A program made the position numbers and the translations under genes. The notes below the pieces were generated by a model. It worked only from the letters and a program-made list of their open reading frames with translations, was not told the origin of the DNA and ran no database searches. A stretch of 56,783 nucleotides of DNA, counting the filler, from a bacterium (lineage in GTDB: Bacteria > UBA9089 > CG2-30-40-21 > SBAY01): the NCBI GenBank assembly GCA_040757115.1. It is 4 parts of 4 records of this genome, joined end to end, with 100 filler letters (N's around TTAATTAATTAA, not from the genome) between each part and the next. Parts side by side here need not be neighbours in the genome. Positions count along the whole stretch, not along the records: positions 42,866 to 56,783 come from JBFLYA010000097.1; 3 more parts are not named here. One strand, written 5' to 3'. Below are positions 14,506-56,783 of this stretch, one piece after another (position 1 is the stretch's first letter; the number at the start of each line of letters is the position of its first letter).

Positions 14506-14981
14506 GTAACCGTTCAGCCACAGAGGCACAGAGTTCACAGAGAATTAAGGAAAGTAGCCACAAATGGACACGATTAACCTCTGACATCCCATAAATGTAG
14601 GGCGAACCTTATTGCTTTTTCATAAATAGGTTCCTCTTTTGGGGAGAGCGATAGCAAGAAGAACTTTAATGTAAATATCAAAATGCAAATATCAAAATTA
14701 CAATGCAAAATGCAAAAATACTTGTAAATTAACAAAGTAGCTGGAGAATATTTTGATTTTTGATTTGTAATTTTACATTTTGATGTTTGATTTTTAATTT
14801 ATTTTATGGTATTCCAGAAAAGTGGAAGTTAATTTTGCAAAAACCATTAGGTTCGCTTTCCTGCTTGCCAGAAGCGAGGCTAAAGCCTCACACTACAAAT
14901 CTCTTTATTATTTGTTCATTCGTGGTTATATATTCGCTCTGTGTTCTCTGTGACTCTGTGGCTATATCCCTGAACGGTTAC
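14506..14981. mobile_element. GTAAC-ended miniature inverted-repeat element carrying a nested 235-bp MITE
   Basis: Ends GTAACCGTTCAG and CTGAACGGTTAC; inner CACAGAG/CTCTGTG repeats; homologous partial copy at 28405-28552. Confidence 0.8.
14612..14846. mobile_element. 235-bp MITE with TTA target duplication
   Basis: TTA on both sides; same-length reverse copy at 41792-42026; partial copy from 28512; imperfect TIRs TTGCTTTTTCATAAA / TGGTTTTTGCAAAA. Confidence 0.85.
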
Positions 14982-25360: not shown

Positions 25361-25389
25361 TTTTTGTTACCTCCTTTTGTCTGGTAATT

Positions 25390-25626
25390 TAGAGTTCTGC
25401 AAAACCAGGAAACTGTAGTTTTTAAGCGGGTATTTAACCTCTATTCTTATCAATTTCCTCCAAAGAGCAAAATGCAAAACTCGTTTATAGTTTATGGTTT
25501 ATAGTTTATAGTCCTTCAACTATCAACTATAAACTATCAACTATAAACTATCAACCCTGTTGCTATATATATCTGTTCTATGAGAAATTTTCGTTAATAA
25601 CTACTATATGTATTTAGAGAACGCTA
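25390..25626. repeat. Mosaic intergenic repeat (AACTATA/AACTATC heptamers)
   Basis: 25453-25545 is the reverse complement of ~43300-43407; 25545-25608 matches ~27665-27722; weak TAGxGTTCT terminal inverted repeats. Confidence 0.7.
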
Positions 25627-25638
25627 TACTATATCTTT

Positions 25639-27524: not shown

Positions 27525-27859
27525 GTAACCGTTCAAGTGGTAATTTACCGCAGAGACGCAGAGGAACAGAGAAGACATATAGTAAGTATTAACCAAAAGT
27601 TCACATTAGTATTGTTGATAGTTGATGGTTGATAATCTATGAAACTATCAACTATAAACTATCAACCATCAACCCTGTTGCTATATCTGTTCTATGAGAA
27701 ATTTTCGTTAATAACTACTATATTAATCTTTTAATACTTACTTTTGACTAACTGTTTTTACGCCTTTTTAAACACCGAAAAACGCGAAAAACACGAAAAA
27801 AAGACATTTTCCTCTCTGTTTCTCTGCTCTCTGCGGTAAAGGATTACCTGAACGGTTAC
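27525..27859. mobile_element. GTAAC-ended inverted-repeat element with a nested TA-bounded ~145-bp element (27578-27722)
   Basis: GTAACCGTTCA...TTTACCGCAGAGA versus TCTCTGCGGTAAA...TGAACGGTTAC; nested ends TATAGTAAGTATTAAC / GTTAATAACTACTATA. Confidence 0.78.
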
Positions 27860-28404: not shown

Positions 28405-28552
28405 GTAACCGTTCAGCCACAGTGGCACAGAGTTCACAGAGAATTAGAGAAATTAGCCACACATGGACACGAATTAACCTGTGACATTCGATAAATGTAG
28501 TGCGAACCTTATTGCTTTTTCATAAATAGGTTCCTCTTTTGGGGAGAGCGAT
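28405..28552. mobile_element. GTAAC-ended element with nested TTA-MITE, cut by contig end
   Basis: Near-identical to 14506-14652. Confidence 0.8.
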
Positions 28553-28652: not shown

Positions 28653-30149
28653 TAATAACTTTTTATTCACCAATCGTTGGAGGTATTTACCAATATTACC
28701 AGAGCTGATTCTACTGCCTCTTTCTGAAAGAAGTTGAGTTATTTCCTGTTTCGTCAAGGGTGTTTCTTGAAAGGAAAAGACTTTAAGCACCTCTGCCTCT
28801 CCTTTACTTGCTTCATTAAACCAGTGGTCAAATATCGCTGTTCCTAAATCCACTAAGGTATTCTGTAAGGCCTTCTCCCAAACTGCTAAATCAACTTTAC
28901 CTGCTATCTGAGTCTCATATAGATTTCTGCATAATACCTGCATTTCAAAAGGATGACCATGAGTATAAAGATATACCCTCTCAATTACCTCTGGTGAAAA
29001 GGTAACACCTGTATTCTCAAGGGTCTTTTCTACTGTATAAACTAACTCTTCCTTTGATAGAGGAGGAAGGTTTATCTTGGAAAGAAAATATCTGCCCACA
29101 GGGTGATGTCTCTTTAAGCTAATAAATTCATTCCATTTCTCAGGAAGACAGGTAATTACAAATAATATCTTTGTCTTTTTAACAATGGTTTCATTGCTTA
29201 AAACTTGTTTAATGGTAGTTAAAATCCCTGAGATAGGCTCAAAGTAATGGGCATCATCCAACATTACTACCATTAATTTCCCTTTATTTTTCTTTATATC
29301 TTCCCACAGACTCAAAAGTGTATCATAGAGAAGTCCTTGAGGCTGTAATTTCGATTTAGATAACTCTCGACTATATTGAAATCCAGTACCCACAATAGTA
29401 ACTCCTAAACCTGTAAGCTGCTTAGTGAATGTCTCTAATTTAGAACTTGTAAAGGGTAAATCCCTAAATATTCCCTGGATGATGCATTCAACACCATCTA
29501 AAACAGTACTATCCTTCCCAAACTCATCCAATGGAACTATAGAGGCAATGTATCCTTTCTTTTGAGCTAACATCTTAAACTCTCGCAATAGCATAGTTTT
29601 ACCAATACCCCAATCACCTAAGACTAAGAAATGGTCACAGACAGCCTCCTCAGCCTCCTTAAGTTTATTCTCAAAGAATCTCAACTCCTTAAATCTTCCT
29701 CCAAATACCTTTGGTTCAACACCTGTTTTGGGACAGAAAGGATTTATCTTCTGCACCTTAGTCCTGCTTTCTAAGATGGCATTCTTAATTATCCTTCTAA
29801 GTTCATCATAATCTATAGGCTTATCAATAAAATCATAGACTCCTTCTTTAAATGCTTCTCTGGCTAACTTTGAGGTTCCATAGCCAGTAACCACAATTAT
29901 CTGGGTACTAGGACTACTCTCCAATATCTCCTCCATAACCTCTAATCCACCCATCTCTGAGGGTCTAAGTCCTGGCATCTTTAAGTCTATAATTACCACA
30001 TCATAAGTCCCTCTTTTTATCTTTTTGAATGCCTCGACAACTGTATCAGAGGTATCAGTAAGATAATCTTCCCCTTTTAATTCACGACAATAAATATCTA
30101 ACATATCCCGATTATCTTCAACAATTAGTATCAAAGCCTTATCTGCCAT
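28653..30149 (-). CDS. Response regulator: receiver + P-loop ATPase (AAA_16/STAND-like) + wHTH, 3' end truncated
   Basis: IVED, IDLKMP, VTG and KP receiver motifs; NPF..FGGR, GDWGIGKT, VMLDDAH and THGHPF; start MADK at 30149. Confidence 0.8.
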
Positions 30150-45811: not shown

Positions 45812-45860
45812 TTGTTTAGAGTAGAGGTCAGAAGACAGAGGACGGATGTTAAGGTAATAT

Positions 45861-46057
45861 ATAACTATTCAGCCACAGATGAATACGGATGAAACACTGA
45901 AAATTCGTGAATCGTGTCCGGTATCCGTGTCCGTAATTAGGCTCAAGGGTTTTTCTCCTGTTGTCCTCTGCCCTCTGCCTTCTGCCCTCTGCCTTCTGCC
46001 CTCTGCCCTCTGTATTTATCCGTGCTAATCCGTATCAATCAGTGGCTGAATAGTTAC
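45861..46057. mobile_element. TAACTATTCAGCCAC-ended inverted-repeat element with heptamer array
   Basis: ATAACTATTCAGCCAC...GTGGCTGAATAGTTAC; (GCCCTCT/GCCTTCT)n at ~45963-46012; overlaps the 3' end of the DegT gene. Confidence 0.78.
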
Positions 46058-47227
46058 CTGATTTAATTCATCCCGATGTTGGTAAATCTGGCAAATAACC
46101 TCACAAATCTTATTTAACTCCTCTGGTTGCAATTCGTCATAAATAGGCAGACAGAGAATATTATTTGATATTTTCAGGGTATTGTCAAGGTCTTCTTTAT
46201 ATTTAGGGTAGAAATGGCGATATGCCTTCTGGATGTGGACAGGTGGATAAAAGTATTTTCGGGTCTGGATATTTTCCATTTCTAATGCTCTGGCTAATTG
46301 GTCACGATTTAAACCAAATAATTCCTCATTGATTAAAATAGCAAAATCTTTAAATGTGCACAGACAATCTTTATTTATTTCCTGAAATTCAATTCCTGGA
46401 ATTTCGGATAACTTTGTTTTATAATCCTGGGCTAATTTATTTCTAATATTTATTAAATCTTCTATCCTAACTAAGTTTTTTAACCCTAATATGGCAGAAA
46501 ATTCAAGCATTCTGGCATTTAGGCCAATTAATTCACAATCATAATCCGAGTCAATGCCGTAATTCCTCATTAATCGTAATTTTTGTGCCAGGTCTTTATT
46601 ATTTGTCGTGATTAACCCTCCTTCGCCAGTAGTCAATGTTTTAGTTGGGGTTAAACTAAATATCTCTGCATCTCCAAAACCACCAATTAATTTAGATTTA
46701 TATTTAGCTCCAAATCCGTGAGCAGAATCAAATATTAGACTTAATCTATAATCTTTGGCTAAATTATCCAATTCATCTATCTGAGGGGGATTGCCAAATA
46801 TGGATACGGCTAATATTGCACAGGTATTTCCAGTGATTGCTTCCTCTACCTTAACCGGGTCAAGCGTAAATGATCTGGGGTCGCAATCAACATATCGCGG
46901 TTCAAGATTATTCCATTTTAATGAAAGGCAGGTGGCAGTAAAGGTAAAACTGGGGACAAGCACTTCACCGATTAATCCTAATGCCTTTTCAACTAAGATT
47001 AATCCAGAGGTCGCATTTGATACAGCAATGACATTTTCTACACCTAAATATTGAGCACATCGTTGTTCAAATTCGGCAACATATCTGCCATTAGTGATAA
47101 TTCCTGAATCAAATGTTTCTTGTAATTCAGATTTTATCTCCTCTAATTTTGGCAGACCTGGTCGAGTAATTGGGAATAGTTTCTGAAATGCTGGGTTACC
47201 ACCTAAAATAGCGGGTTTATAATTCAT
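46025..47227 (-). CDS. DegT/DnrJ/EryC1/StrS family sugar aminotransferase
   Basis: VPSFTFTAT, DSAH, FSLTPTKTLTTGEGG and GLNARM motifs. Confidence 0.93.
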   Translation of the reverse strand: MNYKPAILGGNPAFQKLFPITRPGLPKLEEIKSELQETFDSGIITNGRYVAEFEQRCAQYLGVENVIAVSNATSGLILVEKALGLIGEVLVPSFTFTATCLSLKWNNLEPRYVDCDPRSFTLDPVKVEEAITGNTCAILAVSIFGNPPQIDELDNLAKDYRLSLIFDSAHGFGAKYKSKLIGGFGDAEIFSLTPTKTLTTGEGGLITTNNKDLAQKLRLMRNYGIDSDYDCELIGLNARMLEFSAILGLKNLVRIEDLINIRNKLAQDYKTKLSEIPGIEFQEINKDCLCTFKDFAILINEELFGLNRDQLARALEMENIQTRKYFYPPVHIQKAYRHFYPKYKEDLDNTLKISNNILCLPIYDELQPEELNKICEVICQIYQHRDELNQVTIQPLIDTD

Positions 47228-47864: not shown

Positions 47865-47903
47865 AAATCACCCATTTATGAAAGCTTTTTTATCCCGAAT
47901 TCC

Positions 47904-48259
47904 GGTGGTGTCTTAATCTAGCATAAAGGTTAAAATAGTGTATAGGATCCTGCAAAATAGGATTTGAGAGAGACAATAAATAAATATCAAATATCAAATA
48001 TTAAATATCAAACATAAATATCAAAATGCAAAATTACAAATCAAATTTCAAAGAGGAAGTAGCAGGGTTTCTCAAAGAGTTGGAGGAATTTGGTAATATC
48101 TTTGCTTCAAGTATTTTAACGCTGAAAGGAAAGAGATAATTTTACATTTTGATATGTAATTTTTATATTTGCTTTTTGCATTTTGCTCTTTGGAGGAAAT
48201 CCCTTTTGGACACCAAATCTGCATAGATTTCACTATTAGAGTTATTTTCAGACACCACC
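47904..48259. mobile_element. 356-bp MITE with IS1/IS1595-like ends and an 8-bp target duplication
   Basis: TIR GGTGGTGTCT/AGACACCACC; CGAATTCC at 47896-47903 and 48260-48267. Confidence 0.88.
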
Positions 48260-48341
48260 CGAATTCCGACCCCCAAATACTTCTATATCCACTATAATTT
48301 TCTTGTCTTTCTAATCTGCGAAATCTGCGGATATTATTTAT

Positions 48342-48641: not shown

Positions 48642-48727
48642 CTCCTTTAGATTTGGTAATTGGTTAAATAGATACTACTTACCAATTCCTTGAATTTACT
48701 ATATCATACTTTTAATTAATTGTCAAG

Positions 48728-50912: not shown

Positions 50913-50941
50913 ATTTTACACCTTAATCATCACTTTGTCAA
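50913..50941 (-). promoter_or_regulatory. sigma70 promoter predicting a leaderless transcript
   Basis: TTGACA-17 bp-TAAAAT ending 7 nt before the ATG at 50905. Confidence 0.6.
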
Positions 50942-50958: not shown

Positions 50959-51417
50959 GTAACTATTCACCGCAGAGACACGGAGACACAGAGAAAAAAT
51001 TAAAATCTATTGGCTATACGCTTAATTCCATCTCTTAGAACAGAAACATTAAAATTGATCAATAAACCTATCCTTTTATTCATCATTTTTAGATAGGTTA
51101 AAAGTTGAGCTTCGTGAATCGGAAGTAGTTGCTCGACTGCTTTTAATTCTACGATAACTTTTTCTTCAACTAAAAGATCTATCCGGTATCCACAATCTAA
51201 TTTAAATCCTTTATATATTACAGGTAATTCAACTTGTCTTTTGAAAGCTAACCCCACCATAGATAGTTCATAACATAAACACTCTTCATATGCAGATTCT
51301 AATAGACCTGGACCTAATGTCTTATGTATTTCAATTGCTGCACCAATAATTTTTTCTGTTATCTGATTTATTTCCATGTTTTCTCTGTTCCTCTGCGTCT
51401 CTGCGGTGAATAGTTAC
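50959..51417. mobile_element. GTAAC-ended inverted-repeat element enclosing a GxxExxY gene
   Basis: 21-bp perfect inverted repeat GTAACTATTCACCGCAGAGAC, imperfect out to ~35 bp. Confidence 0.82.
51000..51377 (-). CDS. GxxExxY protein (PD-(D/E)XK nuclease-like)
   Basis: [32 protein letters not shown] and GLLINF motifs. Confidence 0.93.
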
Positions 51418-51436: not shown

Positions 51437-51465
51437 TTGACAATATTAAAATTTTGTGGTATAAT
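51437..51465 (+). promoter_or_regulatory. Consensus sigma70 promoter of etfA
   Basis: TTGACA-17 bp-TATAAT with extended -10 TG. Confidence 0.75.
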
Positions 51466-51475
51466 ACAGGTCAAG

Positions 51476-52660
51476 ATGAATAATATTTTGGTTATGGAAG
51501 ATAAATGTATCAGTTGTGAAGAATGTATCAAGGTGTGTCCTTTTGGTATAATTGCGTTAGCGGCGGATAAAGCGACAATAGGAGCGGGGTGCAATTTATG
51601 TGGAATATGTGTTGATGCCTGTCCTACAGGGGCTATTGTGATGACAGGGAAGGTTGAGGTAAAAAGCACGAATGATTATAAAGGTGTGTGGATATTTGCA
51701 GAACAACATTTTAACAATTTAGCCACGGTATCATTAGAACTCCTTGGAGTAGGAAGGAAATTAGCCGATAATTTACAGGTAGAGCTGAGTGCTGTGTTTT
51801 TAGGAAGTAGAATCGAAGAATTTTGTCCTCAATTAATTGCCTCAGGAGCAGATAAGGTTTATTTATTGGATTCGGAGATTCTGGCAAATTATTGTGAAGA
51901 TACATATACAAAGGCAATAGTTGATTTAATTTTAGAGTATAAACCAGAGATTTTTTTGTTGGGCGCAACTAATAGTGGACGGGCTTTGGCGCCAGGAATA
52001 GCGGCAAGATTAAAAACAGGACTAACCGCTGATTGCACTGAACTTAAAATAGATGAAGAAGGTAAATTTCTTCAAACAAGACCAGCATTTGGTGGTAATT
52101 TGATGGCAACTATTATCACCCCCAATCATAGACCACAAATGGCAACAGTCCGACCAAGGGTAATGAGCAAACCTATCCCGATAGTTGAACGAACTGGAGA
52201 GATTATTAGAATAAAACCCAATGTTATGCAGGAAGATATGAGAACTAAGATAGTAAATTGGGTTAAGGAGATAAATGAAGATGTAAATTTAGAAGAGGCT
52301 GATATTGTCGTTGCCGGAGGAAGGGGATTACAGGAGGCAAAGAACTTTGAATTAATTTCAGACCTGGCTAAGGTTTTAGGGGGAGCAGTAGCGGCCTCAC
52401 GAGCCGCAGTAGATGCCGGCTGGATTTCTCATCATCATCAGGTTGGTCAAACAGGAAAAACTATCTGCCCAAAACTTTATATTGCTTGTGGTATCTCCGG
52501 AGCTATTCAACACTTAGTTGGAATGCAAACTTCAGATTGTATTGTGGCTATAAATAAAGATAAAGACGCCCCTATCTTTGATGTCGCCAGCTATGGAATC
52601 GTGGGTAACCTATTTGAAATACTTCCGGTTTTAATTGAAGAATTTAAAAAAAATCTGTAA
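51476..52660 (+). CDS. etfA: Electron transfer flavoprotein alpha subunit with N-terminal 2[4Fe-4S] ferredoxin domain
   Basis: Two CxxCxxCxxxCP motifs; GLTADCT, RPAFGGN and QVGQTG...GISGAIQH; start corrected to ATG 51476. Confidence 0.92.
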   Translation: MNNILVMEDKCISCEECIKVCPFGIIALAADKATIGAGCNLCGICVDACPTGAIVMTGKVEVKSTNDYKGVWIFAEQHFNNLATVSLELLGVGRKLADNLQVELSAVFLGSRIEEFCPQLIASGADKVYLLDSEILANYCEDTYTKAIVDLILEYKPEIFLLGATNSGRALAPGIAARLKTGLTADCTELKIDEEGKFLQTRPAFGGNLMATIITPNHRPQMATVRPRVMSKPIPIVERTGEIIRIKPNVMQEDMRTKIVNWVKEINEDVNLEEADIVVAGGRGLQEAKNFELISDLAKVLGGAVAASRAAVDAGWISHHHQVGQTGKTICPKLYIACGISGAIQHLVGMQTSDCIVAINKDKDAPIFDVASYGIVGNLFEILPVLIEEFKKNL

Positions 52661-52864
52661 CCGTTCAGGTAGTCCTTTACCGCAGAGACGCAGAGGAACA
52701 GAGAAAACATAGAAATAAAGTAACTATTCAGCCACTGATTAACACGGATTAGCACGGATAAAAAATAAAATCAGTGTTTCATCTGTGTCCATCTGTGGCT
52801 GAATAGTTATCAATAAATTTTAATTTTTTCTCTGCGTCTCTGTGTCTCTGCGGTGAACGGTTAC
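52657..52864. mobile_element. GTAAC-ended element with a second family member nested inside (52720-52810)
   Basis: Outer GTAACCGTTCA...TGAACGGTTAC; inner GTAACTATTCAGCCAC...GTGGCTGAATAGTTA; supplies the etfA stop codon. Confidence 0.8.
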
Positions 52865-56535: not shown

Positions 56536-56636
56536 GTAACTATTCAGCTACTGATTAACACGGATTAGCACGGATAAATAGCAGAGGACAGAGGGCAGAA
56601 GGCAGAGAGCAGAAGGCAGAGGACAACAGGAGAAAC
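56536..56636. repeat. Half copy of the GTAACTATTCAG element with GCAGAGG-type heptamers
   Basis: Reverse complement of ~45951-46057. Confidence 0.75.
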
Positions 56637-56783
56637 GGACATGTCCACAGGGTGGACACAAAGTCTTACGGTAAAATGTCAAGTAAAAAATTAAGTTTTT
56701 TTAAAAATATTTTTCCTGACTTATATCCCTAAAAAGGCACAAAAATAGTATGTTCGGATACAAGTGAATTTTTTAAATATCCA

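Follow-up and report, generated by a model that had tools for sequence, protein, structure and literature searches.

A GxxExxY nuclease gene and its word arrays in a probable IS66-type shell: a two-layer element in a metagenome-assembled bacterial genome

How does the gene of a 125-aa nuclease-like protein come to lie exactly between terminal repeats that are dispersed through the same genome with no gene inside them? The question is raised by a 459-bp element at positions 50959-51417 of a 56,783-nt stretch of DNA (the window), which consists of four contigs (C457-C460) of one metagenome-assembled genome (MAG; GCA_040757115.1) joined by N spacers. This genome, G000, comprises 4.3 Mb in 462 contigs at 36.8% G+C, and it was compared with a sister species, G001 (flanks 96-100% identical), and with other genomes such as G007, from the same order. 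A preliminary description of the window had suggested a possibly undescribed mobile system, with the nuclease-like protein as its mobiliser or dedicated cargo. We consider it very probable that the element is instead built of two layers, an outer shell of the IS66/ISBst12 type that is moved in trans and a conserved inner unit made up of the nuclease gene and its arrays of short words.

The GxxExxY/PDDEXK_3 gene (51000-51377, minus strand; assigned from an open reading frame (ORF) call and profile matches) is the sole ORF of the flagged element that matches any family, and there is no transposase inside. As the preliminary description had stated, the gene is flanked by a perfect 21-nt inverted repeat, GTAACTATTCACCGCAGAGAC, at 50959-50979 and 51397-51417. 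These are the outermost parts of two 48-nt inverted arms (50959-51006 and 51370-51417) that are 85% complementary and contain both the start codon and the stop codon of the gene. Each arm is composed of an 11-nt end (GTAACTATTCA), followed by three C(A/G)C(A/G)GAG words at an 8-nt period. The left end (50959-50969) and the right end (TGAATAGTTAC, 51407-51417) are assigned to the outer shell as terminal inverted repeats (TIRs) of the IS66/ISBst12 type. The left word array (CGCAGAG, CACGGAG, CACAGAG; 50971-50993) lies downstream of the stop codon on the gene strand, and the right one (CGCAGAG, CGCAGAG, AACAGAG on that strand; 51383-51405) lies directly upstream of the ATG and includes a Shine-Dalgarno-like stretch, GAGGAA. 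The flagged copy sits between an outer-membrane-like gene and an etfA-like gene. Two divergent near-consensus promoters, at 50913-50941 (minus strand, 11/12 matches) and 51437-51465 (plus strand, 12/12 matches), flank the element, and ~18-20 nt separate it from the -35 box downstream on either side. Promoter scoring of the flagged region showed none of good quality for the nuclease gene. Across the window, no Rfam family, including those of rRNA, was matched.

The outer shell and its transposase

The end motif GTAACYRTTCA occurs 1144 times in the 4.3-Mb genome and 12 times in the window, where 0.11 occurrences are expected and none of 100 shuffled sequences reached 12. Every site at which gene-less relatives with GTAAC(C/T)(G/A)TTCA ends had been listed earlier was recovered, the left end at 45861 reading ATAAC. 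When the ends were paired by simple bracket matching, 328 pairs resulted and 488 ends remained single. The 8-mers immediately outside GTAAC...GTTAC were then read in the 276 pairs that are no longer than 700 bp and have flanks. A perfect 8-bp direct duplication was present in 81 of them, and a duplication with at most two mismatches in 98; at the latter tolerance a shuffled-partner control gave 8.9 on average and 17 at most. The 81 duplications represent 77 distinct 8-mers with an AT-rich centre. By family, they were seen in 32 of 88 paired gene-less elements with CGCAGAGA arms, 13 of 17 CACGAAG/CATTCAC elements and 6 of 9 four-helix-bundle elements. The earlier statement that complete copies show no target duplication is correct for the six complete copies of the window but does not hold genome-wide.

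Filled and empty sites were compared between the two sister species. Among 40 elements with flanks in the G001 loci fetched, 17 had a perfect duplication, and 11 of these 17 correspond to an empty site in G000 at which the flanks, 96-100% identical, overlap by exactly 8 bp; one further element is at an occupied site and five have no collinear match. None of the 23 G001 elements without a duplication maps to an empty G000 site. The GTAAC elements opposite such empty sites are transposon insertions younger than the split of the two close species.

A search for an IS66 transposase with the same ends, which the preliminary description had mentioned, was successful. The IS66 DDE domain (PF03050) is represented in G000 by one near-full-length broken gene and five fragments. 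The near-full-length gene belongs to a 1563-bp element (C198:3061-4623) with the ends GTAACCGTTCAGGT...ACCTGAACGGTTAC, in which the transposase is broken into three ORFs. A 1505-bp element of G007 (L098:1339-2843) with GTAACCGTTCA ends contains an intact 468-aa ORF that scores 270 bits, over a cut-off of 180, against NF033517 ('IS66 family transposase') and has zf-IS66 and DDE_Tnp_IS66 domains; a third example, with GTAACTATTCAGCA ends, was found in the genome G018. The same 11-14 nt that form the ends of the flagged element bound the transposase genes of the C198 and G007 elements. Published excerpts state that IS66 inverted repeats begin with GTAAGCG and that the family gives 8-bp direct repeats (PMC11946415), that ISDge4, a single-ORF member of the ISBst12 group, has the TIR GTAACTGCTCAGCA and an 8-bp direct repeat (PMC12898284), and that a cognate transposase can activate MITEs (miniature inverted-repeat transposable elements) and mobile insertion cassettes (MICs) (PMC3129680). 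Of the features that define an IS66-type passenger, the flagged element has GTAACYRTTCA at both ends and a passenger gene without a transposase, and its family has 8-bp duplications and a cognate insertion sequence (IS) with the same ends; the flagged copy itself has no such duplication. With an IS66 transposase that has identical ends and with the 8-bp duplications, an outcome that the preliminary description had itself named as refuting, the proposed undescribed system gives way, for the GTAAC-ended elements, to a known family, IS66, of the ISBst12 type.

Genes resembling RAYTs (REP-associated tyrosine transposases; REP, repetitive extragenic palindrome), which are Y1 transposases, are also present in G000 (C200:6339-6974, C430:13372-13842 and C333, oriented 29270-29770). 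Two of them are flanked by inverted repeats of their own (GGGGACGCACAC and GTAGTGAGGGTCTTTAGACCC) and form genuine REP/RAYT-type pairs, distinct from the GTAAC family. A RAYT was also considered as the mobiliser and was rejected, because the RAYT-like genes of G000 are flanked by other repeats. A likeness to integron attC sites, suggested by AAC/GTT cores, was entertained but not retained.

The CGCAGAGA family includes gene-less copies of ever smaller size, down to 33 bp, in which the opening bases (ATGGAAATAAA...) and the closing bases (...ATAGATTTTAA) of the gene are still present; this identifies them as internal-deletion derivatives. A 292-bp form that lacks the first 55 codons shows a duplication in 3 of 5 G000 copies, and in G001 several copies of it are newly inserted. 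As transposition with 8-bp duplications is seen for copies with half the gene or none of it, the 125-aa protein is not needed as a mobiliser. The GTAAC ends are present on both sides of 17 of the 47 GxxExxY matches over the cut-off in G000, on one side of 15 and on neither side of 15. A four-helix-bundle family (TIGR02436, the protein family of 23S rRNA intervening sequences (IVSs)) has 27 matches in G000, 6 of them with both GTAAC ends and 4 of those 6 with a duplication. No fewer than ten distinct inner modules were found between these GTAAC ends, four-helix-bundle genes with GTAGGAA words among them. Inside a shared IS66 shell, the words track the cargo gene, and the ends track the transposase.

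One site reveals exchange between copies. At C34:8601-9059, G000 has a full 459-bp copy, whereas the orthologous locus of G001 (L056:1505-1796) has the 292-bp half-gene form. The two forms share site-specific variants, and the shorter one has the exact deletion of its family, which points to conversion between copies in either direction. Such copy-to-copy conversion may explain the loss of matching duplications in many copies, the flagged one included.

The nuclease gene and its words as a unit

The 125-aa protein matches TIGR04256 (GxxExxY; 4e-48, 162.6 bits, cut-off 35) and PF13366 (PDDEXK_3; 1.4e-46, 158 bits, cut-off 22), the latter being listed as of unknown function in a portion of PMC3424549. 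Eight paralogue lineages have G22, G24, E27, Y30, D67, E77, K79, Q91 and Y95 as invariant residues, among which E27 (in helix 1), D67, E77 and K79 constitute the PD-(D/E)XK catalytic core. The predicted structure (predicted local distance difference test score, pLDDT, 94.9) adopts an alpha-alpha-beta-beta-beta-alpha-beta fold, that of a minimal PD-(D/E)XK nuclease. Its nearest Foldseek matches are Cas4 proteins (SSO0001 and Pcal_0546, E-values 4e-4 to 9e-4) and lambda-type exonucleases, and the Holliday-junction resolvase Hjc, of similar size, was matched with a template-modelling (TM) score by target of 0.45-0.47. The PADLOC match to Cas4 was weak (E-value 3.7e-4), and neither a sequence search of solved structures with the 125-aa protein nor a search of PHROGs gave any match. 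The ratio of nonsynonymous to synonymous substitution rates (dN/dS) was 0.06-0.14 in 15 of 15 pairs drawn from six 125-aa copies in four genomes, which indicates that the full-length GxxExxY gene is under strong purifying selection. From the modelled fold, the gene is predicted likely to encode an active structure- or word-specific nuclease. The preliminary suggestion of a mobiliser or a cargo is thus divided: the movement of gene-less and half-gene copies contradicts the former, and the selection on the gene, together with its travelling with the word arrays, upholds the latter.

The word arm is nearly invariant among copies with a synonymous divergence (dS) of 0.7, and the outer end varies. 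When 21 GxxExxY genes of G000 were displayed and their arms judged by eye, phased inverted words were present on both sides of 14 and on one side of 5, with one gene ambiguous and one cut by a contig end. The words differ by protein lineage and include CGCAGAG, GGGGATAA/GGAGATA, GGAGAAA, CGCAAAG, CGCAGAT and CACGAAT. The second of these lineages, with GGGGATAA/GGAGATA words, was seen in G000 at C256:23520-24066, C437:1616-2194, C133:474-1018 and C386, where it ends in TTCGACCTGTGAAATAGG and lies beside small CACAGGTCGAA...TTCGACCTGTG hairpins.

To extend the comparison, we scanned one genome per species. The 80 loci obtained have 55-71% identity and belong to a wide range of bacterial phyla as well as to two archaeal bins. 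Full flanks were available for 78 of them; 59 of the 78 have two or more phased CRCRGAG-type words on at least one side, and 26 have such words on both. Conservation in these cross-phylum loci ends at TT(C/A)AC. For the GGRGAT words of another lineage, 52 of the 80 metagenome loci fetched were inspected by eye, with near-duplicate rows and some of the low-identity tail omitted. Of the 20 loci with at least 62% identity, 19 carry these words, compared with none of the 32 with no more than 52%, where other words occur. Only one of 26 loci from other phyla had GTAAC ends on both sides. A combined search for TIRs and target-site duplications outside this lineage scored 11 of 80 loci and 7 of 68 controls, and at the TTMAC boundary 26 loci of other phyla were without any 2-8-bp duplication. 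A relaxed duplication search of other phyla matched 2 of 26 loci, with a control mean of 0.56. Among the matches of this relaxed search is a GxxExxY cassette of a Syntrophobacteraceae MAG (L105, ~1100-1700) that has GTAAGAT/GTACCCA plus TTCACCGCAGAG ends and 8-bp flanks matching at 7 of 8 positions (GAAAGGTG / GAAAAGTG), the same IS66-type wrapping outside this lineage. The expectation that other GxxExxY genes share the flanks of the flagged copy is therefore borne out for the inverted word arms, which are nearly universal, but not for the GTAAC ends. Taken together, the sequence comparisons indicate that the gene and its CRCRGAG word arrays form a conserved unit that occurs in many phyla and in which IS66 ends and duplications are mostly absent.

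Weighing the explanations

Under the two-layer reading, whose outer layer is well supported, the GTAACYRTTCA(G) ends are the TIRs of a single-gene IS66 element of the ISBst12 type, and the hundreds of short copies are its MITEs. The 459-bp copy at 50959-51417 would be a MIC, with IS ends and a passenger gene but no transposase. A DDE transposase supplied in trans would cut the elements and insert them into AT-rich 8-bp targets, which are then duplicated, and later nesting, internal deletion and exchange between copies would erase many of the duplications, including that of the flagged copy. In the inner layer, the GxxExxY gene is joined by a pair of inverted arrays in which 8-nt CRCRGAG words end in TTCAC, and the unit is kept by selection. 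We infer that the words may be recognition sites for the cassette's own protein, each clade being matched to its own word, and that the nuclease may act on the arms, as duplex or as extruded hairpin, in a way that favours retention or copy-to-copy conversion. The cassette probably gained IS66 ends in this lineage, possibly aided by the likeness of TTCAC to positions 8-12 of the IS end, and would spread by hitch-hiking. No description of an IS66-type MIC with such cargo, or of the word arrays, was found in the papers searched on GxxExxY/PDDEXK_3, on IS66 with MITEs or ISBst12, and on mobile insertion cassettes.

Several observations weigh against this two-layer reading. A perfect duplication is retained in only 29% of the paired elements, and it was found in none of the full-length GxxExxY copies with GTAAC ends (0 of 4 in G000 and 0 of 2 in G001), so that the arrival of these copies by IS66 transposition is deduced from the behaviour of their family. 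The flanks of the flagged copy, GCACAAAA and CAATAAGT, do not form an 8-bp duplication. No empty site for this copy was seen; in G001 the corresponding left junction borders another element, with a contig break as well, and synteny is absent in the more distant relatives examined for the site. No intact IS66 transposase was found in G000, where some of the fragments are cut by contig ends. The matching of words to clades can also come from common descent of the whole cassette. Furthermore, the four-helix-bundle family, which is unrelated to GxxExxY, occurs in the same layout, and the layout may consequently serve a host process rather than a specific protein.

Two alternatives assign the dispersal of the elements to the gene itself. 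The position of the gene exactly between inverted repeats, its intact catalytic residues and the purifying selection on it would suit a nuclease that mobilises the GTAAC hairpin elements, and a PD-(D/E)XK nuclease, TnsA, has a part in the transposition of Tn7. This explanation is largely refuted and keeps next to no chance, as gene-less and half-gene copies inserted with 8-bp duplications and are polymorphic between the sister species, the same ends belong to an IS66-family DDE transposase and also enclose four-helix-bundle genes, and the full-length copies themselves are without duplications. The gene could also resemble a domesticated RAYT that is flanked by its own repeat and disperses gene-less hairpin doublets (REPINs); an inverted repeat that is far commoner without the gene than around it, and a separate word for each clade, would agree with such an origin. 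However, the protein has a PD-(D/E)XK fold and not a Y1/HUH fold, and the true RAYT-like genes have other repeats. RAYTs are typically single-copy, in contrast to the many copies and fragments of this gene (47 matches over the cut-off), and the dispersed copies of REPs and REPINs are not known to carry the transposon-type target duplications that are seen here. We regard a REPIN-RAYT-like origin as highly improbable.

The inner arms, on the other hand, could act in RNA in the manner of a 23S rRNA IVS, in which a long stem would be cut by RNase III, the small ORF released or silenced, and the insertion thereby tolerated in operons. Passages of PMC4990558 describe the ORF-bearing IVS as ~430 nt long, with a 28-bp terminal stem formed from inverted repeats, a small ORF and excision by RNase III, which the anatomy of the element fits, and describe IVSs as sporadic, horizontally spread and long suspected to be remnants of mobile elements. 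The four-helix-bundle (IVS-type) genes of G000 lie in the same kind of arms, at least 12 of 16 displayed genes being placed by eye between inverted arrays of lineage-specific words. The arms of the flagged element also overlap the ribosome-binding site, start and stop of a gene whose own promoter does not score well. Against a role in RNA, mismatches between the arms, read on the sense strand at 35 loci, comprised 32 G.T and 41 A.C (p = 0.35), an absence of G.T excess that gives no sign of selected RNA pairing. Moreover, the two arms are 85% complementary, yet each is nearly invariant between copies, which fits words better than pairing. By their sequence the arms resemble a set of conserved words more than a conserved stem, and action of the arms in RNA appears unlikely. 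Homing would be a further possibility, in which gene-less hairpins with the nuclease's words are cut by it and then acquire the gene during repair templated by a full copy. The full and 292-bp forms at the C34 site imply conversion, and the words are clade-specific, as homing would have it. That conversion could have run either way, though; the gene-less copies hold remnants of the gene ends and are therefore decay products rather than virgin targets, and full copies are rare, numbering 4 where the family has 88 paired gene-less elements. We consider homing quite unlikely.

A wider proposal goes beyond the two-layer reading. The gene and its word arrays might be an undescribed selfish cassette found across phyla, whose minimal PD-(D/E)XK nuclease would recognise 7-9-nt words particular to its own clade that stand in inverted arrays on both sides of the gene. 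It would persist by conversion at hairpins and by being wrapped repeatedly in the ends of whichever IS is active in the host, here IS66/ISBst12, and the four-helix-bundle 'IVS protein' cassettes would be a sister solution. We put this forward tentatively, as possible rather than probable. If it is true, it explains the origin of ORF-bearing rRNA intervening sequences.

Other elements of the window and comparison with known systems

The other GTAAC elements of the window illustrate the same family in various states. The element at 52657-52864 is a gene-less derivative of the same family and arms as the flagged copy, in which a nested GTAAC element (52720-52810) takes the place of the gene body, as had been described earlier. 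Of the gene, ~11 nt at the start and ~14 nt at the end are left. The composite was found no fewer than 10 times with identical junctions, and the window copy folds into a single long hairpin (z = -13). The TAA of its GTAAC end (52657-52661) is the stop codon of the etfA-like ORF at 51437-52660. At a G001 locus (L032:1447-1455), an element inserted at the 3' end of an outer-membrane-like gene turns GGT TAA into GGG TAA. A gene-less copy with CGCAGAGA arms, at 27525-27859, holds other nested hairpins; its site is also occupied in G001, but the interior and the right arm differ.

Two elements of the window have GCCACAGAG words. The left part of one lies at 28405-28552, where it is cut by the contig end, and its right end is on contig C202; the copy completed in this way has an 8-bp duplication, TTCCCTCC, and an empty site in G001. 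The other, at 14506-14981, is gene-less, is without a target duplication and contains a nested hairpin of another word family. GCCAC occurs with CACGGAT/CACAGAT words in the gene-less element at 45861-46057, which has the degenerate ATAAC left end, and with CACGGAT words in a one-ended element at 56536-56783 that has no right end before the window stops. At the site of the 45861-46057 element, G001 carries a different 92-bp GTAAC element. Different elements with the same outer junctions in G000 and G001 were found at three intergenic sites, 45817-46062, 47874-48339 and 27525-27859. At 47874-48339 lies what is left of a cassette with a four-helix-bundle (IVS-type) gene and AAATATCAAA/AAATGCAAAA words; G001 has a different hairpin with AAATTCCAAAT words there.

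Elements of other types also distinguish the two species. Position 48676 is an empty site at which G001 (C11:9374-9519) has a 146-bp MITE of another type (IS630/Tc1-like), which is bounded by TACT...AGTA and seems to have a TA duplication. Where the window has 248 bp of hairpin remnants (25388-25635), G001 (C301:5176-6780) has a 1.6-kb block with an Rpn/YhgA-like PDDEXK_2 gene. Such Rpn/YhgA-like PDDEXK_2 'putative transposase' genes were seen in 8 copies, for example at G000 C101:26215-27153.

Some 570 element ends in 4.3 Mb, much of the fragmentation of the assembly, and many of the differences between G000 and G001 come from one ordinary swarm of IS66-type MITEs rather than from a new transposition system. 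As the cassette here probably moves with a borrowed and known transposase, its mobility and its function are to be kept apart. Should the words prove to be binding sites, they would provide a compact natural set of matched pairs of protein and DNA word, and could also help to trace how rRNA intervening sequences arose.

Compared with known systems, the nuclease resembles Cas4 and Hjc in its fold and its catalytic D...ExK core. Unlike Cas4, the 125-aa protein is half the size, no cysteines of an Fe-S cluster were noted, and there is no CRISPR context here. The element shares with REP/REPIN-RAYT systems a gene between inverted repeats that are far more numerous without the gene, and repeats that are specific to a lineage, but it differs from them in the enzyme fold, the 8-bp duplications and the multicopy gene. 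With the 23S rRNA IVSs of Coxiella and Leptospira (S23p/PF05635) it has in common a length of ~430-460 nt, terminal inverted repeats and one ORF of ~120 aa, and the PF05635-type genes of G000 have the same layout of word arms, some with GTAAC ends and 8-bp duplications. However, the flagged copy lies between protein-coding genes and not in a 23S rRNA helix, and its ORF encodes a PD-(D/E)XK nuclease; PF05635, for its part, is said in an excerpt of PMC10053308 to resemble Avd, a protein of diversity-generating retroelements. The closest likeness of the shell is to ISDge4 of the IS66 family, ISBst12 group, with a TIR of GTAACTGCTCAGCA compared with GTAACTATTCAGC or GTAACCGTTCAGG here. The two further agree in their 8-bp duplications, in a single transposase of ~450-470 aa in the autonomous form and in short non-autonomous copies moved in trans. 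Yet only 11-14 nt of the IS end are held in common, and the interior here is a foreign cassette rather than a deleted IS. This interior consists of a nuclease or four-helix-bundle gene with word arrays that are conserved across phyla.

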